Positions 10,722-35,700 of a stretch of DNA of 40,134 bases are shown here, piece after piece. The notes under the pieces are model-generated. The model did no database searches, was not told the origin of the DNA, and was given only the letters and a program-made list of their open reading frames with translations. A program made the position numbers and the translations under genes. How positions within the stretch are numbered: position 1 is the stretch's first letter; each line of letters begins with the position of its first letter. The DNA comes from a virus: UHGV virus genome UHGV-0384302. One strand, given 5' to 3'.

Positions 10722-10964
10722 GTGCAAGACAAACTGCAAGACGTTTATATTGCTTATATATGATTATTGCAACACTAAATGTCTCAAAACATATTGGAAA
10801 TACAGGTATTTGGTGTTTCATAGGCATTAAGTACATAGTGCACGATGCACTAACATTTTCATATCACAAGTTACTGTTTATCAGTGATTGAAACTTTTTC
10901 TTTCTTGAAACTGCAAGACAGACTGCAAGACATGAAAACGGCTTTTAAAGGCATTGTCTTGCAG
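10722..10964. repeat. Five copies of a 9-bp motif (A/C/G)TGCAAGAC flanking an AT-rich core upstream of int; candidate Int arm-type / attP region
   Basis: gtgcaagac(10722), ctgcaagac(10734), ctgcaagac(10911), ctgcaagac(10923) as two tandem pairs with 3-nt spacers, plus the inverted copy gtcttgcag(10956). They bracket an AT-rich tract of about 170 bp immediately upstream of the int start. Confidence 0.5.
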
Positions 10965-13770: not shown

Positions 13771-13771
13771 A

Positions 13772-14656: not shown

Positions 14657-14712
14657 AGTTATAACTTGTTTTGATTAGAACCGGTTAGAACTGGTAAGAA
14701 AAACTTTACAGT

Positions 14713-14955
14713 TCAATCGACAATCTCCCATTCTTCAGAAAAAAGTTCGATGAACGTTTCCTTCCACGGCACCCGCCCGAAACGGGATTCCACGTATAGA
14801 TAGGGTGCTGTCATCTTGCTATGCTCGTCCGGGAACTGGGCGCGGATGACTACATCCGGGGACCACTTCGGCAATCTGGCTCCCTTGCCATTTTTCAAAG
14901 CGTGGAGAGCATCCGAAAAAGAGCGTCCTGAATTGTTACATAAATTGTTAGGCAT
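14713..14955 (-). CDS. DUF2829-family small protein (Tad2-like, Thoeris anti-defence sponge family)
   Basis: FSDALHALKNGKGARLPKWSPDVVI...MTAPYLYVESRFGRVPWKETFIELFSEEWEIVD reproduces the DUF2829 consensus (ALEALK.GKKV.RKGW...PFI.M.TADG..VPW..SQ.DLLAEDWEIV). Length of 80 aa is typical. Confidence 0.6.
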   Translation of the reverse strand: MPNNLCNNSGRSFSDALHALKNGKGARLPKWSPDVVIRAQFPDEHSKMTAPYLYVESRFGRVPWKETFIELFSEEWEIVD

Positions 14956-15892: not shown

Positions 15893-18313
15893 TTATTGCG
15901 CTAATTGGTTGATTTCCACGACAGCGGTCTGGGCATAGTGGTGGCCGACAAAAACCCACACTTGCCGGGGTTGCCCGGTCGTGTTGGGGGCAAGCGTCAG
16001 GGTGATTTGGCCGCCGCCGGCTGGTATCTGCTCCGCGGATTGGCTGCACCATACGGCGGCGGGGTCATGCCCGCACATCGTGTCGTTAATGGCGTACACA
16101 GCCTCCGCCAGTGTGGAGGATACCGTCAGCGTTACTTCACCGCCTTCCGCTCCCACCTCCAGCGCGGAAGCCGTCACCTCCGGCACGGGCTTGACCGTCG
16201 CATCACGCATCACAACGCGCTCCATGATCGGCCAGACATCGTTGACTCCCAGCGCGGGGGCTGCGTCAATCCTCATGCCTCCCATCCGCAGCCCCACTTG
16301 CATGGTACTGCTCACCTCGTGAGCCTTGGCTTTTGCCGTGAAGCAGGCCGTGTTGCCGCTCCCGCAAAACAGGCTTGTCATCGGCATCACGTAGTGGCCG
16401 TCCACAAACATCTCCCAGCGATTCTCAACATTGGCGTGGTCAGCCGATTGCCGGGGAGTTATCGCCACAGAAAGATAAGTAACGCTGGGCGCCAATGCCC
16501 ACATATACTGCTGATCACCTACATCCCGCCCGTAATCCGTGCCGCGCAACAGGCAGGACGTGCTGCTGCCCAGGTAGCCCTTGGGGTAGATCGTCACCTG
16601 CCAGGCGGGCGTCATGTCTCTGCTGGTTGCGCCGTTGACAGAGTTGATCAGCGGGTATCTGTAATTTGCATTATCCCAGGCATAATCTACCCAATGGATG
16701 GGATGCGCATAACAATCCGCCGCCGGATTGGTCGCCGAGGAATAGCCTTGCGCCGTACTCCCCAGCAGGATAGACACCTTGTCAGAGCCGATGATGCGCC
16801 ACACAGAGGCGGCGGCATAATCTCTATTACGGCTATTGCCCATGTAGTTGGCAAACTTCCACGCCCCAGTGCTGCAACCAATCAGAGATATGCCGGCAGC
16901 CTTGGTCATCGTGACCAGCATGTCCTGCCAATCGTTACCGTATACGCCCTCCTTGATGGATACGTTGGCCGTGCCCACATTATAAGCGGCGGACATCTGC
17001 ATCTGCCTCACAATGGTAGTTACCCAGGAGGGGATCAGGGTCTCCATGTAGTACCCCATCCGCCGCCAATCATCTGCGGCCCGCTGCTCTATCAGCGCCT
17101 CGTAAGAGATAGCCTCCTGCGCCGTGGCGGGCAAAGGGACGCGCACGCCACCGTTGGCAGTAACGGTGCCCGTCGCAGTCAGACCGCCGGCCAGCGTCAT
17201 GTTGCCCGCCGCGTCCACCTGCGGGATGGCGGCAAGGGCTTGCTGGGCCGCGGTGGCGGCGTTGCTGGCTGTCTGTGCAGATTGGCTGGCATCAATGGCG
17301 GTCGTATTTACCCTTCCTTCCGTTTTGTCTATTTCCTCTTTGGCGGTTTCCGCCTGTTCGACAAGGGGCGTGATTGCCTCCATGGCTTCCGCCTGGACCG
17401 TCTGCACTGCCTGCACGGCTTCCGTCTTTGCCGTTTCCACGGCTGTGACAGCAGCGCCTTGTGCGCTGGCTACCTTGTCCGTGGCGGTTTTCTGCGCTCG
17501 CCCTACAGCAAGAACGGAATCAGCTTGCTTGGCTTGTATGACGGTAACGGCTTCCTCTTTGGCCGCGCTGATCGTCTGTTCCCCGTTGCTGACCGTCTGC
17601 GTAAAATCTGAAACAATCCCTTCCACAGCCGTCTTAGCGTCATTGGCGCTCCTGGCGTCACGGGCCGCATCAGCGGCGGACGTATTGGCCGCCGTCTCGG
17701 AATTAGAAGCTGCCACCTTGGAAACGTAAGCAGAATCGGCATAGCCTTCCGCTTCTCTGGCACGTTCCACGGCGGTAGTGGCTGCTCCGGTTGCCGTCGT
17801 GGCTGCCTGACTCGCTGTGTCCGCGTCCGTGCGGGTTTGTTTGGCTGCATTCAAGGCGTGTTCTGCAGAGATGGAGGCGAGGGTGCAGGAGTTCCATTCC
17901 AGACGGATTTGACGGGTGACGTCGCCTGGCAGGCGAATGGACAGAGTCCGGGACGCATAGGTTTTGGTGTTGTCGGCAAGCTTCCCAATAGATTTGATGA
18001 CACCGATGTAACCGCTAATAAGGCGGTTCTGGTTTCCGGATTCCGAGACGGCAAAGATTTCATAGGGGTGGCGGCCTTCGGGGAGCCCGATGCAGGAAAC
18101 GATGAGGACGTTGGCTTCTTCCGCTGCTGCGGATTTCTGGATGTCGAGTTCGACGGGTTCCGCCCTGCCTTCAAGATGGACGCGCCCGGTGAAAGTGACT
18201 CCGTCCAGAGATACGGGTTCCAAGGTGGATTCATCGCTAAACATCCAGCGCTGCGTCCATGGAATGTTTTCAATGGCTGACCAGTTTTCTGTGACACCGA
18301 GAAAGTCAAGCAT
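15893..18313 (-). CDS. Tail fibre protein
   Basis: 806 aa. N-terminal globular domain, central Ala/Thr/Gln-rich low-complexity fibrous segment (...AATTATGAATTAVERAREAEGYADSAYVSKVAASNSETAANTSAADAARDARSANDAKTAVEG...) typical of phage fibres, and a large C-terminal globular (receptor-binding-like) domain. Confidence 0.7.
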   Translation of the reverse strand: MLDFLGVTENWSAIENIPWTQRWMFSDESTLEPVSLDGVTFTGRVHLEGRAEPVELDIQKSAAAEEANVLIVSCIGLPEGRHPYEIFAVSESGNQNRLISGYIGVIKSIGKLADNTKTYASRTLSIRLPGDVTRQIRLEWNSCTLASISAEHALNAAKQTRTDADTASQAATTATGAATTAVERAREAEGYADSAYVSKVAASNSETAANTSAADAARDARSANDAKTAVEGIVSDFTQTVSNGEQTISAAKEEAVTVIQAKQADSVLAVGRAQKTATDKVASAQGAAVTAVETAKTEAVQAVQTVQAEAMEAITPLVEQAETAKEEIDKTEGRVNTTAIDASQSAQTASNAATAAQQALAAIPQVDAAGNMTLAGGLTATGTVTANGGVRVPLPATAQEAISYEALIEQRAADDWRRMGYYMETLIPSWVTTIVRQMQMSAAYNVGTANVSIKEGVYGNDWQDMLVTMTKAAGISLIGCSTGAWKFANYMGNSRNRDYAAASVWRIIGSDKVSILLGSTAQGYSSATNPAADCYAHPIHWVDYAWDNANYRYPLINSVNGATSRDMTPAWQVTIYPKGYLGSSTSCLLRGTDYGRDVGDQQYMWALAPSVTYLSVAITPRQSADHANVENRWEMFVDGHYVMPMTSLFCGSGNTACFTAKAKAHEVSSTMQVGLRMGGMRIDAAPALGVNDVWPIMERVVMRDATVKPVPEVTASALEVGAEGGEVTLTVSSTLAEAVYAINDTMCGHDPAAVWCSQSAEQIPAGGGQITLTLAPNTTGQPRQVWVFVGHHYAQTAVVEINQLAQ

Positions 18314-18344
18314 GTGGTCTTGATAACACGCATCTGTTCCAGGT

Positions 18345-18396
18345 GGATAGTTTCATGGTGTTAAGTAGTCATCCGCTTAACACCGTGAAACTATCC
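18345..18396. promoter_or_regulatory. 21-bp inverted repeat (1 mismatch, 10-nt spacer) centred between the divergent tail-fibre and nozzle-like genes; candidate late operator / bidirectional promoter element
   Basis: GGATAGTTTCATGGTGTTAAG-tagtcatccg-CTTAACACCGTGAAACTATCC. It lies exactly 32 nt from the minus-strand ATG (18313) and 32 nt from the plus-strand ATG (18428). The right arm recurs at 25507-25530. Confidence 0.5.
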
Positions 18397-18427
18397 GAAC
18401 CACCCCCGGAGTTTTTATGATGGCTGC

Positions 18428-21400
18428 ATGGCAATGACAGCTTTCAACGGTGGCGAGGTTTCCTCTTGGATGGCACGCAGAGTTGACATGGATGTTCTTT
18501 CCCGGGCTTGCGGCACACTGGTCAATTTTGATGTTTCCCAAATGGGAGGTGTTTCCCGGCGCCGCGGGTTCCGGCGCGTGGTTGCTACTCTGGAGGGCTC
18601 CATCATCCTGCCTTATATCTATTCCACTGATGACCGTTACCTTGTCGAGGCGGCCCCTTCCTCGCTCCGCGTCTTGTCCGTTGATGGCGATGTGGTGGCT
18701 TCCCTGCCATCCGTTTGGACGGCGGCTGATATTTCCCAGCTCCGGCACAAGCAGGTCAACAGCATGCTGTTTCTGGCCTGCCCATCCCACGAGCTCATGG
18801 TGCTCAAACGGGATGATGACGGCGTGTTTGCCCTGGACCCCTACGAATTTAAGAATAGGCCGTGGCGGTATGAGGAGTACCGGGATTTCCCGGTCCGGCT
18901 GACGCTGGATGACGGATGCTACAGGCTTTCTTTTGGCGAGTATGCGGGGGATCCGGATGCCGCCACCAACGAAGGGGACGTGATGCGCGTCCAGGTGACG
19001 GTGCCCCAGCAGACCGGGTACAGCACGGGGGCAGTCATCCGCCAGGGCTGGGTGATTGCCAAGGCGTTCACCGCGGCCTCTTCTTACGCTGCCGGCAGGA
19101 AGCTCTGCATCAACGAGGGGAGTTACTGGTCCTGGTGGACCTGTGACAAGGATTTCAACGGGGCAACGCACTACGTAGACGGCTTCACCTCTCCGGCGGA
19201 TTATCCTGACCATTTCCACAAGGGGATTGCCTGCCATTCCAACACCATCACCTGCAAGGGAACCTGGACATTCTATTGTTACAAGGAGTGGTACGGCACG
19301 TACGCGGTGGAGCGCCGCTATCCGGATGAAGACTGGCAGTTGCTGGGCACGTCCAATTCCAAGGTGGGCGCTGCTTCCAACCTTCAGCTCACCGGAGACG
19401 AGGCGGGCGAGGAATGCTACCTGCGCCTGATGCTCTATGAGTCCCAGCTTTCCAACGCTTCGGACCCCAGCCAGGGTTTCCCCGCTGACGCCTGCGGCAA
19501 CAAGCTGGTCGTGGACGCCTACCGCAAGGACGTGGTGCTGCAGCTGCGTTCCGGCGCCCGTCCGGCCACCGTGCAACGGTTCACGATTCCGGCAACTCCG
19601 ACGCTGCGGCATTACCTGACCAGTACCACGTCCTCCATCAAGGCAAGCCGTGTGTGGGTGGATGATGTGGAGATGACGGGAGCTTCCGCTGTGCTGACGC
19701 TGGGCAAGGCCGGCATTGATGTGACGCCCAGGGGGATTCCCGCGGATGCCCTGGCCGACGGGCAAACAGTCAGGTTTGGATGGACGGTGCCCCAGCAGAC
19801 TGGGCGCATTGCCCTGGATGCTCGCGGGATGCGGACAGTCTATCTTCCTGCAGGGGCGCGGTTTGATGTGAATTTGGGGGCGGACATCTACAACAGGGGA
19901 CGCGGCGCGGTGGTCAAGCTGACGGCTTATTCCGCTGCGGATGTGCAGTACACGACGTTGTGGGAGAGCAAGACAGATGTCTACACCACGCCTTCCAGCG
20001 GGTTTTATACATTTCGGATCACCCTCAATAACGGCAGCACCCTGGAGGCTGCCGAGTGCCAGGCCGAGCTTTCCGGGGTGGCTTCCGGCGTCGTCAAGCC
20101 GGAGGTCCAGGAGGATGCGCCCGCTCCGGCCTCCGTGTCCACCTGCGACGTGTTGCGCTTTTCGCTTCCCCTGGAGCCTACTGCCAAGGCTCATTTTTCT
20201 AAGTCCGGGGTGCCCGCCATCAAGGCGCTGGTGGTGGATAAGGGCCGCTGGACGTTCCAGGGCACGGCCCTGGTAGATGGGGATAACCTAGTCATCAAGC
20301 CCAAAGGGCTGACGACGGATGATCTGGTCAAAGGGCAGACCGTCCGCGTCGAGTGGGATGTGGCCGCCGAGAATTTTTCCATCGGAGCCAACCAGCAGAC
20401 CGGCTCCCGATGGGTGACCCGATTCTTGCCGGCAGGGACGGTCGTCAATTTGAAAGGGTACATCTGGATGTACGCCGGCCAGCGCAACGAGCAGGCCGCC
20501 ATGGTCGGTAAGTATTTAAGTTGGACCCCCAACAGCGGTTCTCATAGCATTTCCACGCACACGACTCTTGCCGGTTCATGGACGGTTTCGGAGGATGGCT
20601 TTTACCTGGTTTACCTCCCCTTTGTCAACGCGTTTTCCAGCGTCATCCAGTGGCCGGCGGCTTCCGCAGCGATTCCGGCCTGTACAGGACATTTGGAGGG
20701 GGAGGTGACGGACCTGACGGCTTCCGCGGAGTATTCGCTTTGGGACAATGTGTCCACGATTCCGGAGGGCGTCCCACCGTCCGGGGAGTCCCTGATGTGG
20801 AGCTTTGCCGCGTTCCGGGGCGTCTACGGGTTCCCTTCTCTGGTGGATGTGTTCCAGCAGCGTCTTGTTCTGGCTGCCACGCAGGCCCAACCGCAGACGG
20901 TGTGGTTGAGCAAGACCGATGACCTCAACAATTTCGAGGTGGGCAAACAGGATGACAGCGCCTTGGCTCTCACGCTTTCCACGACGACGCAGAACCGGAT
21001 TTGCTGGCTGATGGCCCAGTCCAGTCGCCTGTTGCTGGGAACGGCGGATGCCGAGTGGGCTGTTTCCGGCGGCCAGGGAGTAATGACCTCCACCAACGCG
21101 CGGGCGGACAACCACGGCTTTGTGGGTTCCTCCGACGTGCCGGCCCTGATGGCAACCGACAAGGTGCTGTATATTGAGCGCGGCGGTGGCCGCGTGTACC
21201 AATACGGTTATGATTATGAGAGTGACGGGTACGTTTCCCGTGATTTAACTGTGTTTGCCGACCATGTGCTGGCCGACGGCGGCGGGTGCCGGGATATTGC
21301 TTTCATCCGTAAGCCGGAGCCGCGGGCGGTGTTCGTGCGCCGGGATGGACAGCTTGCCCTGATGACCTACAACAGCATGCACCAGGTCAACGCCTGGCAC

Positions 21401-21829
21401 CGGTACACGACGGACGGGACATTCGAGGGGGTGGCCGCCCTGCCCAACGGCGACAAGGCGGATTTGCTGTTTGCCCTGGTGGTGCGCGACGATGGACGGT
21501 TCATCGAGGTGCAGGCTCCGGACAATGAGTTCCAGGATCCGGACGGCAGGGATTACGTGTCCACACTGGTGACTTGTTCATTGACTCCGCCCAGGGATGC
21601 GAGAAAGGGCCACGGGGCCCAGGTGATGATGTGCCTGCGCTCCGAAACTCCCGTGGAGGGAGTGATGGTGAGTTCCGATGGGGATGCCTGGTCCGAACTG
21701 GACAGGTACGGTCTGCTTCCTGCCGGATGGGATACCCTGGTATCTGACGGGGCGTGGGACTTTGACGTGCGCGGCGGTGTTCGGGTAACGGGCAACCGCG
21801 GGTTTGAGCTTCTGGCTTTGAGGTGGTGA
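18428..21829 (+). CDS. Large tail structural protein with a triplicated internal module; nozzle / tail tubular protein B-like (T7 gp12 / P22 gp10 class) candidate
   Basis: 1133 aa, translationally coupled to terL. N-terminus MAMTAFNGGEVSS...R.D....S...N...GG.SRRRG resembles the gp12/gp10 N-terminal pattern. Three repeats of a module of about 150 aa marked by TVPQQTG / GANQQTG followed by ...LPAG...N(L)... . Confidence 0.45.
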   Translation: MAMTAFNGGEVSSWMARRVDMDVLSRACGTLVNFDVSQMGGVSRRRGFRRVVATLEGSIILPYIYSTDDRYLVEAAPSSLRVLSVDGDVVASLPSVWTAADISQLRHKQVNSMLFLACPSHELMVLKRDDDGVFALDPYEFKNRPWRYEEYRDFPVRLTLDDGCYRLSFGEYAGDPDAATNEGDVMRVQVTVPQQTGYSTGAVIRQGWVIAKAFTAASSYAAGRKLCINEGSYWSWWTCDKDFNGATHYVDGFTSPADYPDHFHKGIACHSNTITCKGTWTFYCYKEWYGTYAVERRYPDEDWQLLGTSNSKVGAASNLQLTGDEAGEECYLRLMLYESQLSNASDPSQGFPADACGNKLVVDAYRKDVVLQLRSGARPATVQRFTIPATPTLRHYLTSTTSSIKASRVWVDDVEMTGASAVLTLGKAGIDVTPRGIPADALADGQTVRFGWTVPQQTGRIALDARGMRTVYLPAGARFDVNLGADIYNRGRGAVVKLTAYSAADVQYTTLWESKTDVYTTPSSGFYTFRITLNNGSTLEAAECQAELSGVASGVVKPEVQEDAPAPASVSTCDVLRFSLPLEPTAKAHFSKSGVPAIKALVVDKGRWTFQGTALVDGDNLVIKPKGLTTDDLVKGQTVRVEWDVAAENFSIGANQQTGSRWVTRFLPAGTVVNLKGYIWMYAGQRNEQAAMVGKYLSWTPNSGSHSISTHTTLAGSWTVSEDGFYLVYLPFVNAFSSVIQWPAASAAIPACTGHLEGEVTDLTASAEYSLWDNVSTIPEGVPPSGESLMWSFAAFRGVYGFPSLVDVFQQRLVLAATQAQPQTVWLSKTDDLNNFEVGKQDDSALALTLSTTTQNRICWLMAQSSRLLLGTADAEWAVSGGQGVMTSTNARADNHGFVGSSDVPALMATDKVLYIERGGGRVYQYGYDYESDGYVSRDLTVFADHVLADGGGCRDIAFIRKPEPRAVFVRRDGQLALMTYNSMHQVNAWHRYTTDGTFEGVAALPNGDKADLLFALVVRDDGRFIEVQAPDNEFQDPDGRDYVSTLVTCSLTPPRDARKGHGAQVMMCLRSETPVEGVMVSSDGDAWSELDRYGLLPAGWDTLVSDGAWDFDVRGGVRVTGNRGFELLALRW

Positions 21830-21830
21830 T

Positions 21831-23474
21831 ATGGTGTTGACGCCCGAACAGTACGCGACGTTGCAGACGCTTCTTTCCAACCGGGAGTGGCGGCTGAACC
21901 ACCTGTACTGGATCGTGAACAAGAGAGGGAGGCTGGAACGCTTCCGGCTCAACTGGGCGCAAGAGAAGTTGCACCGGGGGCTGCATTTCTACAACAACGT
22001 TCTCAAGGCGCGGCAACTCGGCATCTCCACCTATACCGCCATGTTGTTCCTGGACATGTGCATGTTCACGCCCAACTACACAGCGGGCATTGTAGACCGC
22101 ACGGGTCCGGAGTCCAAAAAGAAGCTCGCCAAGATCAAGTTCGCCTTTGACCACCTTGACCATCTTCCTCAAAACCCCACGCAGGAGGATTTGGAGCTGG
22201 CCGCCATCGGAGCCGCGTTGAAGGAAGAAATGAAGGGCTGCTACATCGGAGCCACGGAAGCGCGGTTTCCGAACGGCTCCATGATTTACGCCGGAACCTC
22301 CCTGCGCGGCGGCACGCACCAGTTGATTCATATTTCCGAACTCGGCTATGTGGCAGCCCACGACCCGATGAAGGCAGAGGAAACCATCACCGGCACCCTC
22401 AATTCCATCGACCAGACCGGCGTCATTATTATGGAGTCCACCCACGAGGGCGGACGCTACGGCCTGAATTACCATTTGATTTCCGAGGCCATGGATATGA
22501 TCGGCAAGCCGCTTTCCCCACTGGACCCGAAGTTCTGGTTTTTCTCCTGGGTGGAACAGCCGGAGTACCGTCTGAAAGGGTGGAAGTTTTCCGGGAATCC
22601 GGAGCTGGCCAAGTATTTCAAGAGCCTGGAAACGGAGTACAAGATTATGTTGGATGAAGAACAGAAAGCATGGTACGAGGCGAAGAGCCGCACGCAGAAG
22701 TCGAAGATGCGCCAAGAGTTCCCGACGGTGCCGGACGAAGCCCTGAACCCGATTGCGGAAGGGACGATTTACGGCAGCCAAATCAATCACCTTCGGGAGA
22801 TGGGGCGGCTGACGGCAGAGTTCGAGCCGGATCCGTACCGGCCTGTGTACGCCGTGTTTGACAAGGGGATGGCGGACTTTACCTCCGTCTGGTGGATTCA
22901 GCCGCGCCCGGACGGTTTGTTCGCGCTGCTGGATAATTACACGGCCAACGGCCAGGGGCTGGACCACTACATCGGGGAGATTCGCAAGAGGGAGGCCCTG
23001 TTCGGCAGGGTGAAGGATATTGTGCTTCCCCACGATGGGGTGAACCGGGATTACAACGGGGTGAAGTATTTTGAGAAGCTGGAACAGGCGGGGTATTCCA
23101 CCATCCTGGTGAAGCGCACTTCCGACGTGTGGGCTTCCATTGACAGCACACGATCCCTGCTGCGGCATGCGGTGATTCATGCAAGGTGTTCCCAAAACAC
23201 GATGCTGCCGGACATGAAGGAAGGGTATATTTCCGGCGTGGACGCCCTGGCAAATTACAAGATGGCGCCGCCGGGCCGCAACGGTGTTGCTCGGAACGAG
23301 CCGCTGCATGATGTTTGTTCCCACGCCTGCGATTCCCTCCGCACCTTCGCGGATGCCTGGGCCGCCGGCCTGATTGCCAAGGAGACCGGGTGGCGGTATG
23401 AAGAAGACGACGAGGACAGGCGTAGGGGGCCGTATTCCGGGTTGGTGAAGGGAGCGGAAAGCCTCTACATATAG
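21831..23474 (+). CDS. terL: Terminase large subunit
   Basis: Deviant Walker A LKARQLGISTY (compare T4 gp17 SRQLGKT). ATPase then C-terminal nuclease-like half (VWWIQPRPDGLFALLDNYTANGQGLDHYIGEIR). 547 aa. Confidence 0.85.
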   Translation: MVLTPEQYATLQTLLSNREWRLNHLYWIVNKRGRLERFRLNWAQEKLHRGLHFYNNVLKARQLGISTYTAMLFLDMCMFTPNYTAGIVDRTGPESKKKLAKIKFAFDHLDHLPQNPTQEDLELAAIGAALKEEMKGCYIGATEARFPNGSMIYAGTSLRGGTHQLIHISELGYVAAHDPMKAEETITGTLNSIDQTGVIIMESTHEGGRYGLNYHLISEAMDMIGKPLSPLDPKFWFFSWVEQPEYRLKGWKFSGNPELAKYFKSLETEYKIMLDEEQKAWYEAKSRTQKSKMRQEFPTVPDEALNPIAEGTIYGSQINHLREMGRLTAEFEPDPYRPVYAVFDKGMADFTSVWWIQPRPDGLFALLDNYTANGQGLDHYIGEIRKREALFGRVKDIVLPHDGVNRDYNGVKYFEKLEQAGYSTILVKRTSDVWASIDSTRSLLRHAVIHARCSQNTMLPDMKEGYISGVDALANYKMAPPGRNGVARNEPLHDVCSHACDSLRTFADAWAAGLIAKETGWRYEEDDEDRRRGPYSGLVKGAESLYI

Positions 23475-24436: not shown

Positions 24437-25420
24437 TTAGGCCGCCGCTTCCTTGCAGGGAAGCACAAAGACGGTCTTGTTGTCCAGGCGCGTTGCGCCC
24501 ATGGCAGCCTTGACCGTGATTTGTTCCCGGACGTCCACGTATTCCGGCCTGGGCTCGATGCGGAAGGAGGCGTCTTTCCACACGCCGAATTTGACGCGGC
24601 TCTTGAGCCAGGCGGCACAGAGGCGGTTTCCGTCGGCATCCACAGGCAGCATGTTGGTGACAAAGAACGTGCACTTGAGGAATTTATTGACTTCGCCGGT
24701 CGTAAGGGAAGAGAAGCCATAGTCCTTGTTCTGCGCCTGTTCCCACAGGATCATGTCCATTTCCTGGGTGGGGGAGATGGCTACGACGATTTCGTTCATC
24801 ATGTCACGGGATACGTTCATTGCCCGGTAGCGGCGGCGTAGTTCAGCGATTTTGTCGATGAGCATGCCGGCAGGAGTTTTGGTGCCTTTCGCAGCGTAGT
24901 CCACCGGGATGACCTGGGAGGAGCCGGCGGAGAGGTCCAGCGTTTCCAGTTCGTCTCCGTTTTCCCCGACGTAGTTCGGGGCGAAGATGCCGCCGCAAAC
25001 GCCATCTGCCTGCGTTCTGATTTCAAAGGCGCCGGATTTGCGGCCAACGCCCAGGATGACTTCATCGAAGGTGCGCTGGACGCCCTTGCGCTGTTCGCTC
25101 ATGACGTCGGATGCAGCAAGGTCCAGGGTGTCCATGTCCATCTTGTCATCTTCCGAGAGCGGGATGGAGCTGTAGAATTTGCGCTTCTTGAGATGACGCT
25201 CCCCAAAGTCCAGTTCATCCCATTCGAGCTTGACCTTGCGCCCCGTGTATTCCCGGATGTCCGTTTTGCCGTGGAACGGCAGGGAGACGGATTTGCCGGA
25301 GCAGTTGGGGTGCAGCGTCACGTAGGGTTTGACCAGGGACGTGTCCTGCTGGATTTGCGTGTTCCACTTGGTTTCGTATTTGGTACGAAACATTTTGGTG
25401 ATGTCGGATGTGAGTTCCAT
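24437..25420 (-). CDS. Major capsid protein (putative)
   Basis: 327-aa ORF. It is the only capsid-sized gene in the structural region, lies on its own strand segment with a strong terminator, and sits adjacent to the gp11-like gene. No clear family-specific motif recognised. Confidence 0.5.
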   Translation of the reverse strand: MELTSDITKMFRTKYETKWNTQIQQDTSLVKPYVTLHPNCSGKSVSLPFHGKTDIREYTGRKVKLEWDELDFGERHLKKRKFYSSIPLSEDDKMDMDTLDLAASDVMSEQRKGVQRTFDEVILGVGRKSGAFEIRTQADGVCGGIFAPNYVGENGDELETLDLSAGSSQVIPVDYAAKGTKTPAGMLIDKIAELRRRYRAMNVSRDMMNEIVVAISPTQEMDMILWEQAQNKDYGFSSLTTGEVNKFLKCTFFVTNMLPVDADGNRLCAAWLKSRVKFGVWKDASFRIEPRPEYVDVREQITVKAAMGATRLDNKTVFVLPCKEAAA

Positions 25421-25482
25421 ATCACCCCTTATGGCATAGGAGACAGAGAGGGGCTGATGCTCGTCCTGTTAATTCCACTGCT

Positions 25483-25546
25483 CATGATGTTAAGCGGATG
25501 GATCGTATTAACACCGTGAAACTATCGAACCGCCTGTGGAACTCCT
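25483..25546. promoter_or_regulatory. Second copy of the conserved TTAACACCGTGAAACTATC element with a short inverted repeat, upstream of the plus-strand virion-protein operon
   Basis: catgaTGTTAAgcggatggatcgtaTTAACAccgtgaaactatcgaacc...tatgATGG shares 19 identical nt plus downstream gaacc/tatgatgg/gcatgg blocks with 18376-18430. Confidence 0.45.
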
Positions 25547-26119
25547 ATGATGGGGCGCATGGACAAGGTGACGTTTTTCCAGCAGGCGCTTCAAACCCTT
25601 GGAGACCGCGAGTATAAGCGGGATACGCCCACGGGGAATGCCTGTGATTTGTGGTTCCCGACGGTGATGCACGAAGCTTTGAATTACGGAGCATGGAGTT
25701 TTGCAACCCGCTCTGTTGATTTATCCGCGGAGGAGGACGGAACGTTCCTGCTGCCGGAAGACTGCCTGCGCCCCTTGAAGGTGGATGCCATGCGCTTCCG
25801 CATCGATGGGCGCCGGGTGATTGTAGAGCAGCCCTGGACCAGCCGCGGTGACAAGGCGCTTTTCCTGCGTTACGTTTCCAATGCTCTGGCGAAGGCGGAA
25901 CGGCTGCCGGAGGACCAGCCCTTGTTCGTCCGCGGGGTGACGCTGCTCCTTGCCGCCCGCATAGCGGTAAAGATTACAGGGGACCAGCAGCTTGCCCTGG
26001 CTCTGGATCAGATGGCTTCCGCCACGCTGGCCGACGCCCTGCACAAGGACGCCCTGGCCCAGTACAGCAATGACCAGCACCCGCTGGCCGATATTTTGAA
26101 TTCTTCCATCGTAGGGTAG
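25547..26119 (+). CDS. Tail tubular protein A / adaptor (T7 gp11-like) candidate
   Basis: 190 aa (T7 gp11 is 196 aa). YGAWSFATRS...TFLLPED and LFVRGVTLLLAARIAVKITG resemble gp11 RGWTFNIEE...ITLLPD and [20 protein letters not shown]. First gene of the operon that continues into internal virion proteins. Confidence 0.4.
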   Translation: MMGRMDKVTFFQQALQTLGDREYKRDTPTGNACDLWFPTVMHEALNYGAWSFATRSVDLSAEEDGTFLLPEDCLRPLKVDAMRFRIDGRRVIVEQPWTSRGDKALFLRYVSNALAKAERLPEDQPLFVRGVTLLLAARIAVKITGDQQLALALDQMASATLADALHKDALAQYSNDQHPLADILNSSIVG

Positions 26120-27170: not shown

Positions 27171-29708
27171 ATGCCTGAACAACCCATGTACAGCGGCGCC
27201 CGCACCCAGCTTGGAGACGGCGCTTCCCCCTTTGTCATCCCCAATATTGGAATTGACGCTTCACAGCACGCTATCCAGCGCGGCACCGTGACTCTGGATG
27301 AAACTGTGAAGCAGTATTTCAAGATTCAGGACTTTGGAGAGGAGCAACGCCTTGAGTCCGAGGTAAGGGGATTGCAGAGTAAGTTCGACGTGGAGTTCCA
27401 GCGGCGGGCATCCCTGGCTCCCGGCTCTTCCTCGCAGGCTTTATATGATTCCGACGGCACCTTGCGTGAAAGCGTGCTGCAGGACTTGTCCGATGAGTAC
27501 GCGGGAAAGATTGGAGAGCTGCGGGGCGGCTTTGTGCTGCCGGAGAGCCGCATGAAGTCCGATGCCATGCGCCAGCGAGTAGGTGATAGTTTTCTGAACA
27601 GCGCATACCAGAAAGCCGCCCTGCTGGGGATTCAGCGCACGCGGGAACACTTCCAGAACAACTATGACCTCGCCATTCGTAACGGAGACTACTCCGGGGC
27701 CGGGTACGCCATCACGGACGCACGTGACAACGGCGTCATCACCGCAGAAAAAGCGGACATCATGCTCCTTGACCTTCGGGACACTGCTCTCATGGCCCGC
27801 GCCCAAAAGCAAAGCGAAGAAGACCCCGTCGCCTTCTGGAATGAACTGGACGACGACGGCAGCCCTTACGCCGTTCTCCCCTCCTCTAAGCGCATGCAGC
27901 TCCAACGCCTCGCTTCTCTCTCCATGCAGGGATTCAGCCGTTCCTTCGTCAAATCCGTGGAAACAGGCAACGCCAAGGCGGAAAAAATCCCCGGATCCAA
28001 AACCTCAACAGCATCCACAGGCAGCGCGAAAAAAGAAAAGGAAATCTACAACCCGGCTCCCTCCAACATCACCCGCAATCTTCATGCCCTCTGGCGCAAA
28101 TACAACGGAGACTTCAAGGAAGGGCAAGGAAAAATAGACGCCATGCCCTTCCTTGCGGAACAGGGTCGAGCCATGATCACCTCGCCCAATGACGAAACGG
28201 AGGCGGAAATGGTCATCGCCCTCTACAAGCAATTCGGGCAGGGGGAAGACTACGCTAAAGCCATGGTCAAGCAATGGCAGGAAGACCTCGCCCGACCGAA
28301 GGGTCTTGACCCTAAAGTCACCTTATCCCATGCAGCCCAGGTGGGCTACTTCACCAGGGCGGAAGACGCGGCCATCCTTGCTCTTGAACAGGAAAAAGCG
28401 CAGAAACAGGAAGACGATGAATGGACGCCGGAAGATGAAGCCCGGCTCAAGGCCGCCAAAGACCGGAGAAAAGCCGCTGCGGAAAATGCCCAATCCATCC
28501 TCCTCGCCAATCTGGACATCTGGAAAAACGACCAGCAATACAACGGCGGAAAAGAAAAAAAGGAACTCACGGAACTCGAAATTGCCAACCGCCTGTGGGA
28601 CACCATCGCCAACTACACCCCAGGCAACAGGGATCAGGTTCAGCAAGACAGCTACCGACAACAGGAAGCAGTCAACATCACAGCGGCCAGTGACAATTAC
28701 GTTCGGAAGCAGGCCGCAGCCCAAAGCCGCAACCTTGACCTGAAAGCGGAACTGTCCGTTACCAACCGCCTCAATGAAGAAGAACGGAAAGCCGCAGAAA
28801 AAATGATCGCGGACATCAGGCGCAGGGAAGAAGAAGCCTACCGCCGCACGCAGCCCGTGGACTCCATCGTGCCCGTCAGCCGGAACAAAGACCTCCCCGC
28901 CCAATGGGGGGACGACGGACAGGAAGCCGTTCTCTACGTTCCGGAAGGCTGGTACGCGGAAGGAATCACCGTGGGCGTCACCACCCCCGGCCGCCGCTAC
29001 GCGGAAGCGAAAATCGTCTCCAAACCGGACTGCACCTCTCCCACCATGTCTAAAGCCCTTCGCCGCCAGCTTGGCACCATGAACATCAACTACGACCAAA
29101 TTACCGTCACCGCATCCGGCACCAAAGCCAACACTGCCGCCGGAAACACCGCTGCCCTCATCATCGGCAATGAAGCCCGCCGTGACAAACAGGGCAATCT
29201 TTCCATCTACAGACTCCCAGCCGGAGACGGCGGAGGAACGCATGAAATCGCCGGAATCAACAACGGCAGCCACCCGGCGGAATACGCCAAACTGGAAACC
29301 CTCGTCAAAGCGGGCAAACACGCGGAGGCGGAACAGGAAGCCAAACGGTACATCATGCAATATACCCAGCCCGTCGGAAACATCCTTCAAACCGCAGGCG
29401 TCACTTCCTCCGGCATAGACTACTTCCTCCGGGACATGTACTTCAACGGCGGCGAATATGGGGCCGTCCGCGTCATTCATCGCGCCCTCGGAGTGGAAGA
29501 CTCCAAAAAATTCAATGCGGACACCGTGGAAGCCGTAAAAAACTACCTCAAGACCCACACGGAACAGCAGCTCTTGGAACGCCTCAAAAACGCACGGGAA
29601 CGCCTCTACAAATCCATCGCCGCCAACAACCCGGACAAACGGCAATTCCTCTCCGGCTGGCTCAACCGGAACAACCGCGTCTACGGGCAGGCCGCGGAGA
29701 TGGCTTAA
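27171..29708 (+). CDS. Internal virion (ejection) protein with C-terminal GH108-like N-acetylmuramidase plus PG_binding_3 domain (T7 gp15/gp16 class)
   Basis: 845 aa, long charged helical regions. The C-terminal ~170 aa (...DGGGTHEIAGIN...YFLRDMYFNGGEYGAVRVIHRALGVEDSKKFNADTVEAV...RQFLSGWLNRNNRV) match the GH108/DUF847 core (DPGG.T..GI ... NGG...A.R.LQ.A.GV.DG..G..T) and the F..GW.NR ending of the PG-binding domain. Confidence 0.6.
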   Translation: MPEQPMYSGARTQLGDGASPFVIPNIGIDASQHAIQRGTVTLDETVKQYFKIQDFGEEQRLESEVRGLQSKFDVEFQRRASLAPGSSSQALYDSDGTLRESVLQDLSDEYAGKIGELRGGFVLPESRMKSDAMRQRVGDSFLNSAYQKAALLGIQRTREHFQNNYDLAIRNGDYSGAGYAITDARDNGVITAEKADIMLLDLRDTALMARAQKQSEEDPVAFWNELDDDGSPYAVLPSSKRMQLQRLASLSMQGFSRSFVKSVETGNAKAEKIPGSKTSTASTGSAKKEKEIYNPAPSNITRNLHALWRKYNGDFKEGQGKIDAMPFLAEQGRAMITSPNDETEAEMVIALYKQFGQGEDYAKAMVKQWQEDLARPKGLDPKVTLSHAAQVGYFTRAEDAAILALEQEKAQKQEDDEWTPEDEARLKAAKDRRKAAAENAQSILLANLDIWKNDQQYNGGKEKKELTELEIANRLWDTIANYTPGNRDQVQQDSYRQQEAVNITAASDNYVRKQAAAQSRNLDLKAELSVTNRLNEEERKAAEKMIADIRRREEEAYRRTQPVDSIVPVSRNKDLPAQWGDDGQEAVLYVPEGWYAEGITVGVTTPGRRYAEAKIVSKPDCTSPTMSKALRRQLGTMNINYDQITVTASGTKANTAAGNTAALIIGNEARRDKQGNLSIYRLPAGDGGGTHEIAGINNGSHPAEYAKLETLVKAGKHAEAEQEAKRYIMQYTQPVGNILQTAGVTSSGIDYFLRDMYFNGGEYGAVRVIHRALGVEDSKKFNADTVEAVKNYLKTHTEQQLLERLKNARERLYKSIAANNPDKRQFLSGWLNRNNRVYGQAAEMA

Positions 29709-29729: not shown

Positions 29730-32700
29730 ATGGACTACTTGCAGGAAAACACCTTCTTCATCCCGTCCCCCGCGCCCGCGCCTGAACAACTCGCCTCCCC
29801 GGACTATGAGCAGCAGCGGAAACAGGACATGGACTACCTCTCCAACTACCTCCTCTCCGGCCAGTACCCGGAACACCGCGCCTTGGCGGAACAGGCCCAC
29901 GGCCATGACCCCTATGCCCATGCGCCGGAACAAGAACGCAAATGCTTCGTTGGGCGTAAAGCCTGCGGCGTCCTCCTCGGCAACGACCAGGTCCCGGACA
30001 TGTACTTCCGCCAGCAAAACCTCCCCATCCCGGATGGGGCGGACACGCGGGAAAAAATGTACATGGCCGTCTATGACCACCTTGACGGCGTCGTCAAGCA
30101 GGCCAAGCAGAAACAGGTGGAAGAACAAAAAGCCCTGGAACAATACGGCCAGCAGTTATTGGGGCGCATTGACCGCGCCTGCAAAGGCAGCGGAGAACAA
30201 TGGACGCCCAAAGACATAGACATGATGGGCCGCGCCGGAATCACACCGGACATCATCAACCGCGTCCGCGCCGCCTATGCCAAACTCCCCGTCGGCAGTT
30301 TCATCCTCGATGATGCCGATGCGGCAAACGTCATGACGGCAGCCGGACTCAACAAAGACGACCTCACGCCGGATGACAAAAAAGTGGAAGACATCCTCAT
30401 GAGCCTGTGGGGCAAGGCCATCTATGACAACTACGGAGCCAACATCGACAGACAATATGAAAACCCCGTCGCTCAATATGCCTACGAAAGCATCAAGCCC
30501 ATCCACAACCTCTACTACTCCACGCTCTCCGGCGCAATGGGCGTCTTGGAAAACCTCCGCAATGTAGACGCGGACGTCCCCTCCTTCATGACGCCGGGGG
30601 ACCGCATGGCATACGACCATATCCCCTTTGACAACAAAAACCCCTTCCTCTCGGCGGAAGAAATGCGGCATGACAAGGGACTCCTCCGCACCATCGACTT
30701 CCGGGCAAAAATGAAAAACGTCCGCAAGGCGGCCCAGCAGGCATACACCGAAGGGAGGCAAACCTGGGGAATCAACAAATTCGCCGTCACCCTTGGCGAC
30801 ATGGTCGGTCAATCCGTCCCCAACGCCATACCCTACTTTGGCGTGTACAGCCTCCTCAAAGGATCCGGCACGCAACGCTATGAAGAAGGCGTTGCCCTCG
30901 GACTATCCCGTGAAGAAAACGTCAAACGTGCATCCCTCTTCGGGGCGGCGGACACCCTGGAAGAAAAAATCGGCATGGGCGTCCTTGGCAAAGTCCCCGT
31001 GCTGGGGCGTCTCCTGAACGCCGGACTCAACAAAACGGGCCTCCCGTACAACTCCCTCCGCGCCAAATACCTCGCCAGTGAAACCGCCCAAATATGGGGT
31101 AACACCGCGGCGGGCGTGCTGGAAGAAGGCGTTGCGGAACCCATCGTCGGGGGCACTACCCGCGCTCTCATGAGCAACTTCCTTGACGATGATCGGGGCA
31201 AAACCTCCCTCTCCGCCATCCCCGGCGCCATCCTCCAAAACTTTGAAGGCTACCAGGGCCTCGCCCTTGCCTTCTACTCCCGCGGCTTCGTCAAACTCGC
31301 GGAACCCCAAATCCGGGAAAACGTCAAGCACTTCGCGGAATCCCTGGACGGATTCACCGCTCTCGGCGGTTCGGAATCCGGCTACCTTCGCGCCTTGGAA
31401 ATCAAAGACACCGACGCCCGCAACGACTTCATCGCCGAACACCTTAAAACCGAATGGGCAAACAACCCGGAACAGGCAGCCCGCCGGGCGGAACAGGGAA
31501 ACGCCGCCCTCCTCGGTACACAGGAAATCGCCCAGCTCCGCGAACTCGAATCCTTCCGCGCCTTGCAGGAGCGCGGCGTCATTCCCCGCTTTGAGCCAGC
31601 GCAGGAAACGGGCAAATACCGTGTCTACCTTAACGCGGAAACAGCGGAAACCCGCCGGAAGACCCAACCTTCGGAGGAAGGAATTTCCGCGGAGAACCCC
31701 GTGGCGGAACAAACGCGGCAGGGGCAGGACTACGCCCTCATGACGGAAGACCAGCTCAACACCCTCCTCACCCTCTCCATTGGAGAACGTGAGCGGGACA
31801 CCATCCTGTGGGCGCAAAACCTCCTCGCGGCGGAAAACGTCGTGGACTACCTCGAACAACAGGGATGGAAAACGGAAAACATCGGCCAGACGGAAACCAC
31901 AGCCACCCTCCGCACGCTCGCCCGGCAGGCTACCGCCACCGTCCGCCTGCTGGAAACCTCCGGCATCACCCGGCAGGAAGCCCTTGCCTCGGTCAACCCG
32001 GACATCTCGGAACATGCCAGCCTCCAAAGCATCATCACCGCCTACTCCGGGTCCAAGGGCAGGGCGGCCACCGCCCGCCGCCGCGGGGAACAAACCTCCT
32101 TTGCCTCGAATGCCTATGTCATCCGCCAGCAGGATCCGGTCAACGGAGGCTTCCAGCAAATACTGCGCTTCTCCCGTGGAGAAGCCACGGTGGAAAACCT
32201 GTGGGAAGAAACCATGGAACAGGCCGCCATCAACTGGTGCGCCCAGGAAAACCTCTCCCCGTCCACCTTCGGCAGCCAGCTACAGGACATGCAGCGCGCC
32301 GTCAACCAGCTCTACGGAGAAGAAGGGGGCGTTCAATTCATCGGCCTTGACGTCGTTCCCACCTCCGGCGACGTCGTGGAAGCCCTCTCCCTCATCGGAC
32401 GTTCCCGCCTCATGCACGACGTGGTAGCTGGCACCAGCAGCCTCCCCTCGTGGATCCAGAAACTTGTCCGCTTCGTCTCCTCCTTCCTCGAACAATTCCG
32501 TGCCAAGGCGGAACTCGGCCACGCCATCGCCAAACTGGAATCATCCGGCCAGCTCACCCCGGAAATGCAAAACCTCATCAACGCCATGACCGGGGCCGTG
32601 GACTCCATCCACGCGCGGGACATCCGGCAGGAAGCGGACATCGTCACCGCCGTGGAAAGCTCCATCGCGGAACATGAAGCCGCCTTCACCCGTGCGGGCA

Positions 32701-35700
32701 CCTCCCAAACGAAAACGCTGGAAGACATCCGGGCGGAACTTGACGACGTTGCCGCCCAGCAGGAACAGGCGGAACCTCCAACCACGGAAACCCCGCCGGA
32801 TCCCGCCCAGCCGGAACCGGACGCCAATGCCTTCATCGCCCCTGACGGCACAGTCCTTGCCCCCGGACAGGACAGCCGGAAAGACGCTGCCTCTGATAGC
32901 CCCTTCATCGGCGGCAACTACATCCAGATCGGGGAAGCCCGCCTCGGAGCCGTCCCCACGGCCTCCATCCTCCATGCGGAAGACCTCGCTCAAACCAAAC
33001 GCAATGCGGACGCCAGCGGCCTCACCAAGCCCCTCACTGGAAAATTCAAAAGGGAAACCGCCCCCGTCTACCTCCTCCATCGCAACAACGGAGAACTTCA
33101 TATCTTCTCCGGCAGGCATAAACTCGCCCTAGCCAGAGAAAACGGCATCGACCGTGTCGCCGCCTACGTCTATGAAGAAGACGCTGCCCACACCCCGGAA
33201 TGGGCGCGGTATGAAGACATCCGCCTCAACATCCTCGATGAACAGGCCACCATCACGGAAGTAGCCCTCTACGCCCGCCATCTCAAGGACGCCAGCCCGG
33301 AAGCGGACGTCGTTGCAGACATGACTCACGAGGGACTGGTACGCATCCACCCCCAGCCGTGGCGGCGTACCCCCACCCAAATAGGCGCATTCATCGGGGC
33401 CAACGCCAGCCCTGACTTGCTCGACCGCCTCAAAAACCCGGACAACTCCCTCATGGATGAAAAGGCGGCCTACACCATCTGCCAGCTCACCACGGACGCG
33501 ACCGTCCAGCAATGGGCCGGGGGACAAATCCAGCAGGGGCAGTCCATTGACGACATCGTCGCAGGCATCCAGCAGCGGGACGCCGCCGTCTCCGGCGGTC
33601 AAATCGAATACGACATGTTCGGCAACGCCATCTTCAACAACGCCGAATTTGACCACGTCACCCGCTATGTCAACGCCTGCAAGGCGGAAATCTCCCGCGT
33701 GGAAGCCCTCCTCAAAAGCAAAAACCGCATCGCCAAAGACCAGCCGCTTGCCCGCCAGCTCGGCCTCTCCATTGACCAGCACACGGACGTTGCTTCCATC
33801 CGCAAGCAAATCGCGTCCCTCAAAATCGCCTACAACAACATCGGCGTCCACCCGGAAATCACCGCAGCGGGCCGCCTCTGGAAAGAAGGGGAACCCGTTC
33901 ACCCGCTCAAGGACATCCCGGAACTCCGTCTTGAAAACGTAGAGAAAACGGACACGGAACCCAGGCCCTTCGATGACGGGGAAATGCTCTTCTCCGCCAG
34001 CCTCACCCCTATCCGGAAATCCGCCGCAAACGTCCAGCCGGAAGGCAGCCATGCCCCAAGAATCAACGTATTTTGGCATGGTGTGGAGGAAAAAGACTAC
34101 CGCTCTCTTCCTGTGGAAGAACAAGAACGCCTTGCCAGCCGTGGCCTCGATGAACTCTACCCCATGGCCGAGGCCGTCATGCAGGACTTTGACACCATCG
34201 TCCGCGGCATCGGGGAACGCCTCGGACTGCGCGTCATGATGCGGAAAACTCTCAAAGGCCGGGCACGTGCCTTACAAAAAACCGTGGGAGACAATTACGG
34301 CGATGCCGGAAAACTCCTCGATGTTTTCGGGGGCACCCTCATCATGCCGGACAGTGCGGACTTCTCCCAAGTCATTTCAGAAGTCAGGGAATCTGGCATG
34401 ACTATCGCCCGCATTAAAAATGGCTACAAGGCCCACGATCCCTACGGTTATGCGGACATCAAGCTCAACGTCCAAATGCCCAACGGATTCATCGGAGAAA
34501 TCATCCTCATTGAAGAACACATGATGCGGATGAAAGAAGGCCCCGGTCATAAAATTTACGAAGTGGGCCGCAACCTTCAAAACGAACTCAACCAGAACAA
34601 AGACAACCCGGACTACGGGGAAAAACGCCGTCAGCTCGTCACTGGTTATGTAGAAACCCTGCAACAACTCTCCCACGCCTACTACGGTAATCAGGGGCGC
34701 GAACCAATCAGGGAAGCGGAACAGGAAGCACGGGAAGCTTATTCAAAATTGCATGGCTGGGCATTCTCCAATGCCTCTTCCAGTGAGGAAAGCGGAATCG
34801 TTCCATTAGCTGGATTGGGGGAAGGAATGTACTTTGCTTCAACCAATCTGGCAGACCCATCTTTGGCAACCTTCACCTGGTATGTTTTCCCGGACTTGTC
34901 GGAAGCCCAGGAAGCGTCTCCGTCTCCTCTAGTCCAGAACTCGACCAGTTCCACATCTGATGCTCTCAATAACATATCCACGGATAATGTAGCATCGTCC
35001 CTGAACAATGTCAAATCAGCCCTTGAACAAGCGGGGGAACGCGCATCCTCCCCATCCCCTGAACAGGACGGCCCCGGCGTCAGCTTCTCCCTTGCTCAAG
35101 CCTCCGTCATTTCAAGGCTCATTCTTGCTCCTCGCGCCAACGAAGCCAAAGCCCGTTCCCTCATGCGTGGCATCGACGAAGCCATGAACCGCTGGAACAT
35201 TGCTGCATCCGTGGACATCACCCATGACAGCGCGGCCCGCACCTTCGGGGAACTCAACTCCATCCTCGCGGAAATCCAGCGAGTCCTGCCGGACAACTAC
35301 AAAATCAACATGCGCCCCTACCTCAACTTCGGAGCAGCCTACGCCCGCATGCTGGAAACCGGACGCATCCGCTCCTATGGCAAACTCTCCCCGGAACAAA
35401 AAAACACCCTTGCGGCGGAACTTCAAACCCTCATGGACTCGCCGGACGTTCTCACCGCCATCCGCGGGGAAGTGGTTGATCAAATCTCCATTCGTCAGGA
35501 AACAACAGGAAGGGGAGGCCCGGAATACGCGCAGGCATACCGCACCCAACAGGAAGACATCGTCCGCCAGCTCGCCGAAGGAAGGCTCAACACCCTCCTT
35601 ACCTCCATCATGACCGACGTTCGCGGGCAGCTCGAACAATACCTCAAGGACGAAAGCGTTGCCAAGGTACTTGACCGCATCGCCCGTCTCATGCCCAAAA

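Follow-up and report, generated by a model that had tools for sequence, protein, structure and literature searches.

A repeated box-and-promoter module as the most likely switch for virion and lysis genes in an uncharacterised temperate Akkermansia phage

The virus genome UHGV-0384302 was analysed as a single stretch of 40,134 nucleotides (nt), referred to here as the window. Two intergenic gaps in it separate genes that point away from each other. Gap A lies between the gene for an unannotated protein of 806 amino acids (aa), on the minus strand, and that for a 1133-aa tail protein, on the plus strand; gap B lies between the major capsid gene, on the minus strand, and a gp11-like tail protein gene, on the plus strand. 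An initial annotation had placed an element of about 45 nt in each of these gaps, at 18376-18433 and at 25507-25558. The element is real, with coordinates that were one base off, and the divergent setting of both copies is borne out by the strands of the flanking genes. It contains a 19-mer, TTAACACCGTGAAACTATC, which occurs once exactly in each gap and a third time, inverted and with one mismatch, in gap A (Table 1); it was found 0 times across 100 dinucleotide-preserving shuffles and 0 matches are expected by chance. Global alignment of 18377-18436 with 25508-25567, a comparison that had been proposed as a check, brings the 19-mer, GAACC, TATGAT, GG and GCATGG into register with single-base gaps. 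The likeness between the two exact copies is beyond chance and runs on past the 19-mer, through TATGATGG..GCATGG.

Two copies had been described; there are in fact four, each belonging to one of four late operons. When the window was scanned for TTAACA followed by a long open reading frame (ORF), four oriented copies of the 19-mer, termed the box, were recovered as two back-to-back divergent pairs (A-left and A-right, B-left and B-right). At all four the distance from the start of the box to an ATG is 51-52 nt, and that ATG belongs to the first gene of a late operon. The box consensus is TTAACACC-N5-6-(A/C)ATA(C/T), 19 base pairs (bp) long, with no conserved internal dyad or palindrome. With a position weight matrix (PWM) of the box, the only other match in the window scoring at least 15 lies at 8678 and is unconserved in relatives. 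The four late operons thus have an upstream site in common that the early promoters lack, as expected of a shared late-promoter site. The capsid copy is degenerate and is accompanied by a second degenerate box in tandem, which forms a weak inverted repeat with box B-right; the homologue of this distal box in the related locus L012 has a PWM score of 17.0, and a tandem pair is also found before the capsid gene of L014.

Downstream of every box, at module positions 40-45, there is a -10-like hexamer that ends 6-7 nt before the ATG. The hexamers TATGAT, TATCAA, CATAAG, TATCAT, TAATAT and TATGGT, from the window and its relatives, share the same alignment columns, which is what would be seen with the -10 element of the host housekeeping sigma factor. 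The sequence ATGATGG, previously taken for the start region, is actually the TATGAT hexamer of this element, 6-7 nt before the real ATG. No -35 element accompanies it: a consensus scan found no sigma70 -35/-10 pair in 18200-18500 or 25350-25650, and the best match to a -35 hexamer 16-18 bp upstream of the -10 is 2/6 for both exact copies. TTAACA itself was considered as the -35 hexamer and is ruled out, since it lies 33 nt from the -10 instead of 16-18. A mini-ORF (MMAAWQ and a stop codon, 18417-18437) and upstream in-frame ATGs were also considered as regulatory upstream ORFs and rejected, since they form no consistent pattern from one promoter to the next; they arise simply because some -10 hexamers include an ATG.

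One such ATG, at 25547, is in frame with the gp11-like gene and falls within its -10 hexamer. Automatic gene calling puts the start of the gene there (190 aa), as against a Met at 25559 that is conserved across lineages; conservation of the protein begins at MDKV in all relatives and the codons upstream differ. Judging from this comparison, the annotated gene probably begins 4 codons ahead of its true start.

The module is conserved in related prophage loci, and the motif search that had been suggested for the genome and for related phages found further instances in both. Close relatives (L001-L005, L011 and L012) keep the whole module. The comparison was widened to loci in which the gp11-like protein is 74% (L006-L008) or 66-67% (L009, L010) identical, and to L013, L015 and L014, which come from the same contigs or lineages and were fetched with the large terminase (TerL). 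The wider relatives keep the TTAACACC core, ATA at positions 16-18, the position of the -10 and a distance of 51-53 nt to the ATG, and they do so before tail, gp11-like, capsid and 806-aa protein genes. When 13 of these promoters were aligned, drawn from four lineages of phage and standing before four different genes, the only invariant columns were TTAACA, T16, A41 (the second position of the -10) and the ATG, and the 18-nt spacer after the box varied freely. Fixed positions in the box, the -10 and the start codon around a free spacer are the mark of a promoter and not that of a structure in RNA or DNA.

A hairpin, GTTAA...TTAAC, had nevertheless been reported before each copy of the element. 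It is present in gap A, where arms of 21 nt, 95% complementary and separated by a 10-nt spacer, can form a 21-bp hairpin (DNA fold, z = -8.2), but not in gap B, where short, imperfect arms give a fold that does not surpass that of shuffled sequence (z = -0.8). Where it occurs it is not a structural element as supposed; it consists of two divergently oriented copies of the box, and relatives carry a single copy at places where just one late operon begins. It could be argued from the stem in gap A that the inverted repeat acts as a structure, whether a DNA cruciform, a hairpin promoter like those of N4, an RNA hairpin or a bidirectional terminator, and the arms do differ between lineages yet stay complementary, as in the palindrome of L009, where two boxes abut without a spacer between the 806-aa protein and gp11-like genes. 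That apparent covariation arises because two copies of one box face opposite ways. The hairpin or cruciform reading was rejected on account of copy B, of L007, L013 and L015, where a single box stands without a partner arm and has an integrase gene or unrelated sequence on its upstream side, and of the spacing of the arms, which varies from 0 to 14 nt; the capsid box of L014, moreover, lies in a co-directional gap. Rfam gave no family at the gathering score, and two sub-threshold microRNA matches in a relaxed scan, both at copy A, are hairpin artefacts.

The more specific forms of structure fare no better. N4-type hairpin promoters have a stem of 5-7 bp and a 3-nt loop and lie before early genes in a phage that also encodes a virion RNA polymerase. 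Here copy A folds into a hairpin whose stem is 21 bp and whose loop is 10 nt, neither copy B nor the single copies of relatives form one, the genes downstream are structural, and no polymerase domain was found in the 2900-aa protein. For an intrinsic bidirectional terminator, there is no T-run or terminator-like site at either element, and the flanking genes diverge, the element lying between gene starts, not ends. A structural role in any of these forms is therefore very improbable, and box copies track operon starts, not hairpins.

A repeat of this kind could also have no regulatory role, as a packaging, replication or recombination site or as what a duplication happened to leave behind. The flanks are indeed mosaic in appearance: GCGGATG stands directly before box A-left on the minus strand and before box B-right on the plus strand, which suggests that one intergenic region was once copied to, or recombined with, the other, and the spacers of the paired boxes (18365-18376 and 25494-25507) are related in opposite orientation. 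A repeat without a regulatory role is nevertheless hardly credible, because the box and its distance of 51-52 nt from four different start codons have been kept in lineages whose proteins are only 66-74% identical, and a neutral remnant, a pac site or an ori site would not show such conservation.

More distant Akkermansia prophages, with TerL 37-53% identical, lack the TTAACAC geometry (loci L021-L100) and have boxes of their own in its place. L028 and L091 have four occurrences of ACACCGTCACGATTTTATTTT-N13-TAGAAT-N6-ATG, ahead of genes homologous to those for the 806-aa protein (N-terminal part), the capsid and the gp11-like protein; in L077 and L080, CGTTTGCGGGAATAGGTTTT-N16-TATGAG/TAACAT/TATAGA-N6-ATG occurs four times, with a short form CGTTTGCGGGAATAGG..TATGAG-N6-ATG; and in L042 there is TGCCGAAAACGCACATAG...TAGCAT-N6-ATG. 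The copies lie at 5324, 11619, 16961 and 18195 in L028, at about 780, 1900, 3010 and 11650 in L077, and at about 1600 and 9010 in L042. The sequence GGGAATAG is found at about -41 to -34 in both the L077 lineage and the L009/L014 lineage. Among the 824 gene starts predicted in loci of related Akkermansia prophages, TAnnnT has a sharp peak precisely at -12 from the ATG, with 44 occurrences against a background mean of 10.9 (Poisson P ~3e-14). The same layout, with lineage-specific boxes, is thus found across a large family of Akkermansia prophages.

Such a short distance between the -10 and the ATG raises the question of where transcription begins. Leaderless mRNAs are widespread in Actinobacteria and Deinococcus, and the lambda cI gene is transcribed as one from PRM. 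The CI-like repressor gene of the window has the same leaderless geometry as PRM, a canonical TTGACA-16-TAATAT with 6 nt between it and the ATG (minus strand: TTGACA 1917-1922, TAATAT 1895-1900, ATG 1886-1888; region 1889-1930), and terS, whose true ATG is at 9074 (MKELTEKQ), has a sigma70-type TTCACC-17-TATAGT, again followed by 6 nt and the ATG (9039-9076). Host-type promoters with this spacing therefore occur in this genome. The stop codon of the preceding winged-helix gene falls within the stretch occupied by the terS promoter, and in a large human-gut lineage (L108-L162) the sequence before terS is TTGACG-18-TAAAAT-6-ATG. All 13 aligned promoters have ATG as the start codon, the codon expected of leaderless mRNAs. 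In the primary transcriptome of A. muciniphila, obtained by Cappable-seq, -35 and TATAAT logos were seen and some 10% of transcription start sites were leaderless (PMC4782308), which makes leaderless late mRNAs plausible. From the 6-7 nt spacing and the TAnnnT peak it is inferred that the late mRNAs are probably leaderless, with transcription starting at the A of the ATG. The initial annotation had proposed a combined promoter and translation-initiation module for late genes; the promoter part holds, and the part concerned with translation is most likely just such a leaderless start.

Taken together, these observations are probably best explained by an activator-dependent late promoter module used by the host sigma70-type RNA polymerase, with a leaderless ATG start. 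The module would comprise the phage-specific 19-bp box at about -51 to -33, a sigma70-type -10 (TATGAT or a variant of it, in some cases preceded by TGn) at about -12 to -7, unaccompanied by a -35, and the first ATG of the operon 6-7 nt past the -10. Pair A would drive the operon of the 806-aa protein, amidase and portal to the left and that of the tail protein and TerL to the right, and pair B the capsid gene to the left and the operon from the gp11-like gene to that of the 2900-aa protein to the right. Because they have no -35 element these promoters would most likely be silent until a phage protein binds the box and recruits the host RNA polymerase. The centre of the box is near -42, which is the position of a class II activator; the host-like -10, the boxes that differ between lineages within one host genus and the span from -51 to -33 all fit an activator that is encoded by the phage and bound in a class II-like position.

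The box had also been thought of as a site for phage-specific transcription machinery. That view stands insofar as the 19-bp box is phage-specific and is probably recognised by a DNA-binding protein of the phage that works together with the host polymerase; a phage RNA polymerase is not detectable in the window. Were the box instead a promoter or specificity element for a T7/SP6-like polymerase or for an alternative sigma factor, a sequence of about 20 nt, strictly conserved, oriented, phage-specific and placed before every late operon is what one would expect to find, and GTGAnACTAT within the box presumably resembles the core of the SP6 promoter. However, the ORFs offer no polymerase or sigma candidate: searches of all the larger ones against Pfam, PHROGs, NCBIfam and PDB sequences found no RNA polymerase or sigma domains, the 806-aa and 2900-aa proteins included, and no RNA_pol family match. 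Neither the sigma70-like -10, which has an invariant A and lies 20-21 nt past the box at a fixed distance from the ATG, nor the absence of conservation in the 18 nt after the box is expected of a T7-type promoter, and for a sigma factor the spacing between the box and the -10 is too long to be that of a -35/-10 pair. A phage polymerase or sigma factor is accordingly quite improbable.

Alternatively, the box could be the operator of a phage repressor, for instance a MarR-like protein, at promoters that are intrinsically active and are kept silent either during lysogeny or up to a late stage of infection. Most members of the MarR family are repressors, a protein with a MarR-like profile match is encoded by this phage (see below), and several of the promoters have a TGn extended -10 and would be able to work without a -35. 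Set against this, the best-conserved promoters, A-right and B-right, have neither TGn nor a -35 and should be weak unaided; the box lies upstream of the -35 position and overlaps neither the -10 nor the start site; and the region of the CI-like repressor's own gene (1889-1942) carries a different repeat. Repression is thus unlikely, and an activating role for the box would fit better with its position.

If the module does depend on an activator, the best candidate in the genome is the 126-aa winged-helix protein encoded at 8686-9066, at the end of the early operon and directly upstream of terS. Its Pfam match to MarR_2 is below the curated cut-off, as are matches of several of its homologues to MarR_2, PadR and HTH_20. 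A profile built from 10 syntenic homologues nevertheless finds ZitR, AdcR and MarR chains in the PDB with E values of 5e-9 to 1e-5, a similarity that places the protein with the MarR family, although at 94-143 aa these winged-helix proteins are shorter than typical MarR proteins. An ORF matching the winged-helix profile abuts terS in 71/86 loci with enough upstream sequence; the 15/86 exceptions are distant loci whose TerS is at most 35% identical. The helix SLPS[AV]GRLLGYLI of the window protein recurs in the homologues of L105 and L106 (63-69% identity band); these loci are on the same contigs as L013 and L015, and their phages keep TTAACACC. In L028/L091 and in L077 both the helices and the boxes are different. 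BLASTP between the window and L028 winged-helix proteins is not significant, so that their relationship rests on profile and synteny. Late activators encoded directly upstream of terS have precedent in RinA, ArpU and LtrC (PMC3753634, PMC3152322).

The fifth match to the PWM, TTAATGCCATGAAAATAGC at 8678-8696 on the plus strand (score 15.9), overlaps the start of the winged-helix gene and was considered as a site of autoregulation. It is unconserved in L105 and L106 and was rejected; with about 0.17 matches scoring at least 15 per mononucleotide shuffle, it is probably due to chance.

Several points weigh against activation through this protein and against uniformly leaderless starts. Proteins of the MarR family usually act as repressors, with a dimer bound to a palindrome, and the box, unlike the usual MarR operators, is not internally palindromic; the co-variation of box and protein is, furthermore, confounded by the overall divergence of the lineages. 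The capsid gene has AAGGGG 4-9 nt before its ATG, a possible Shine-Dalgarno sequence. In L014 the best -10 candidate lies 3-4 nt further upstream, and the mRNA may carry a short leader. In three lineages there is an in-frame ATG within the -10 hexamer of the gp11-like gene, the one chosen by the gene caller (190 aa). Finally, terS is without the TTAACACC box, which means that not every late function depends on it.

Table 1. Late-promoter features and principal genes of the window
Feature	Position	Strand	Remarks
Box A-right, TTAACACCGTGAAACTATC	18377-18395	+	Exact match; 51 nt before ATG 18428; PWM score 24.4; predicted to serve the 1133-aa tail protein gene, then TerL
Box A-left, TTAACACCATGAAACTATC	18346-18364	-	One-mismatch match; 51 nt before ATG 18313; predicted to serve the 806-aa protein gene through amidase and portal
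Box B-right, TTAACACCGTGAAACTATC	25508-25526	+	Exact match; 51 nt before ATG 25559; copy at 25507 in the initial annotation; predicted to serve the virion operon from gp11-like to 2900-aa protein
Box B-left proximal, TTAACAGGACGAGCATCAG	25454-25472	-	Degenerate (TTAACAGG...); putative capsid promoter; 52 nt before ATG 25420; PWM score 15.2; kept in L011 and L012
Box B-left distal, TTAACATCATGAGCAGTGG	25475-25493	-	Second degenerate tandem box, 21 nt upstream of proximal
-10 TATGAT, A-right	18416-18421	+	In the -10 columns of the 13-promoter alignment, with invariant A41; 6 nt to ATG 18428
-10 TATCAA, A-left	18320-18325	-	Preceded by TGT (extended -10)
-10 TATGAT, B-right	25546-25551	+	7 nt to ATG 25559
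-10-like CATAAG, capsid promoter	25428-25433	-	Preceded by TGC
ATG of 1133-aa tail protein	18428-18430	+	Proposed (leaderless) transcription start, from geometry; ORF list; PHROG tail protein, E 5e-95
ATG of 806-aa protein	18311-18313	-	Proposed transcription start; N-terminus MLDFLGVTENWS conserved from the same Met in L009
ATG of gp11-like tail protein	25559-25561	+	Proposed transcription start; MDKVTFFQ...; PHROG tail protein
ATG of major capsid protein	25418-25420	-	ORF list; PHROG major head protein, E 5e-32
CI-like repressor gene	1070-1888	-	Helix-turn-helix plus S24 peptidase
DnaB helicase gene	7368-8681	+	Rightward early operon
MarR-like winged-helix protein gene	8686-9066	+	126 aa; candidate activator
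TerS gene	9074-9565	+	ATG at 9074
Tyrosine integrase gene	9516-10739	-
Portal gene	12121-13833	-
Amidase gene	14066-14656	-
Tad2-like protein gene	14713-14955	-
806-aa protein gene	15893-18313	-	Unannotated
1133-aa tail protein gene	18428-21829	+
TerL gene	21831-23474	+
Major capsid protein gene	24437-25420	-
gp11-like tail protein gene	25559-26119	+
845-aa protein gene	27171-29708	+	Peptidoglycan-binding domain
2900-aa protein gene	29730-38432	+

The window is the genome of a temperate, podovirus-like Akkermansia phage, with a G+C content of 55.7%. The host is Akkermansia, judging by the company its proteins keep: the loci retrieved by TerL alignment are, almost without exception, contigs of Akkermansia metagenome-assembled genomes, and the winged-helix protein has homologues, up to 92% identical, that are named 'Akkermansia sp.'. 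Megablast of 17-27 kb against GenBank phages gave no match and the nearest TerL among them is 35% identical, so the phage has no close relative there and no closely related phage in culture. A search of genome contigs with the capsid protein found no relative, and an exact look-up of the 186-aa gp11-like product, as a proxy for contigs derived from transcripts, found nothing on record.

Some further features of the genome were noted. Residues 1469-1605 of the 2900-aa protein (34134-34544) are similar to Tas1 (PDB 6ox6; E 6.8e-7), which we take to be a type VI secretion toxin with (p)ppApp synthetase activity; this stretch could be an ejected effector domain. The 80-aa protein of the leftward late operon (14713-14955, minus strand) has a Tad2-like (Thoeris anti-defence 2) domain (Pfam, E 2.3e-10). 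The sequence TTGATATTATGCGATTATTGCAA at 1892-1914, in the immunity region, recurs as TTGCTTATATATGATTATTGCAA at 10750-10772, before the integrase gene, and may be an operator common to both. A 39-nt direct repeat (10720-10758 and 10909-10947) flanks the presumed attP region. Upstream of the amidase gene (14657-14696, minus strand) there is a direct repeat, AGTTCTAAC-N2-3-GTTCTA(A/T), similar to sequence at about 9915-9962 of L120, where it precedes a 193-aa gene; this repeat may be a separate control element of the lysis genes.

The proposed mechanism is an ordinary type of phage regulation, akin to that by Mu C and Mor, P2 Ogr and proteins of the RinA type, and introduces no new principle. 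The Mu promoters Pmom and Plys (dependent on C) and Pm (dependent on Mor), and the late promoters of P2 and P4 (dependent on Ogr and Delta), all need an activator and use the host RNA polymerase. As is well established for these phages, several late operons share a site of about 20 bp in or just upstream of the -35 region, with a class II centre, together with a sigma70 -10 and a poor or absent -35, a description that also fits the module considered here. The box is, however, unrelated in sequence to theirs and without internal dyad symmetry, its promoters form back-to-back divergent pairs with apparently leaderless mRNAs, and no Mor/C or Ogr homologue is detectable in the window. The middle promoters of T4, where a MotA box stands with a sigma70 -10, are alike in that a phage box replaces the -35 and the host -10 is retained; the MotA box, on the other hand, is centred at -30 rather than near -42 and needs remodelling of sigma by AsiA, and homologues of MotA or AsiA were not detected in the window.

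RinA, ArpU and LtrC, of temperate phages of Gram-positive bacteria, are needed for transcription of the morphogenesis and lysis genes (PMC3753634, PMC3152322). These are small DNA-binding proteins whose gene lies immediately upstream of terS, the same position as that of the winged-helix gene in the Akkermansia loci. The fold of the latter is MarR-like winged helix, the host belongs to a different phylum, Verrucomicrobiota, and the function proposed for it is inferred. There is also a difference in promoter arrangement: phages with RinA, ArpU or LtrC have a single late promoter before terS, whereas in the window terS is served by a sigma70-type promoter of its own, the box standing before four other operons. 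It may be, and we suggest this with some reserve, that the box and the gene upstream of terS represent an undescribed family of MarR-like winged-helix late activators in phages of Akkermansia, of the Planctomycetes-Verrucomicrobia-Chlamydiae (PVC) superphylum, each lineage with its own box of 19-21 bp and a late regulon expressed as leaderless mRNAs; they would then be positional analogues of RinA and ArpU with a different fold.

A search of the literature found nothing on the control of transcription in Akkermansia phages, nor, to our knowledge, have these phages been described as using leaderless starts at the head of essentially every late operon. Expression of the virion and lysis genes of this uncharacterised temperate phage most likely depends on the module, which provides a testable map of a late regulon, with four promoters, start sites predicted to the base and a candidate activator, for an unstudied family of phages whose host, a gut bacterium, is of medical relevance. 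Gene starts in Akkermansia phages could be called better as a result, the gp11-like gene being a case in point. The pairs of box and activator, with their leaderless signals, could serve as genetic parts for Akkermansia; if the family of MarR-like late activators is real, it would offer orthogonal, inducible promoter-activator pairs for a gut bacterium that is genetically difficult.

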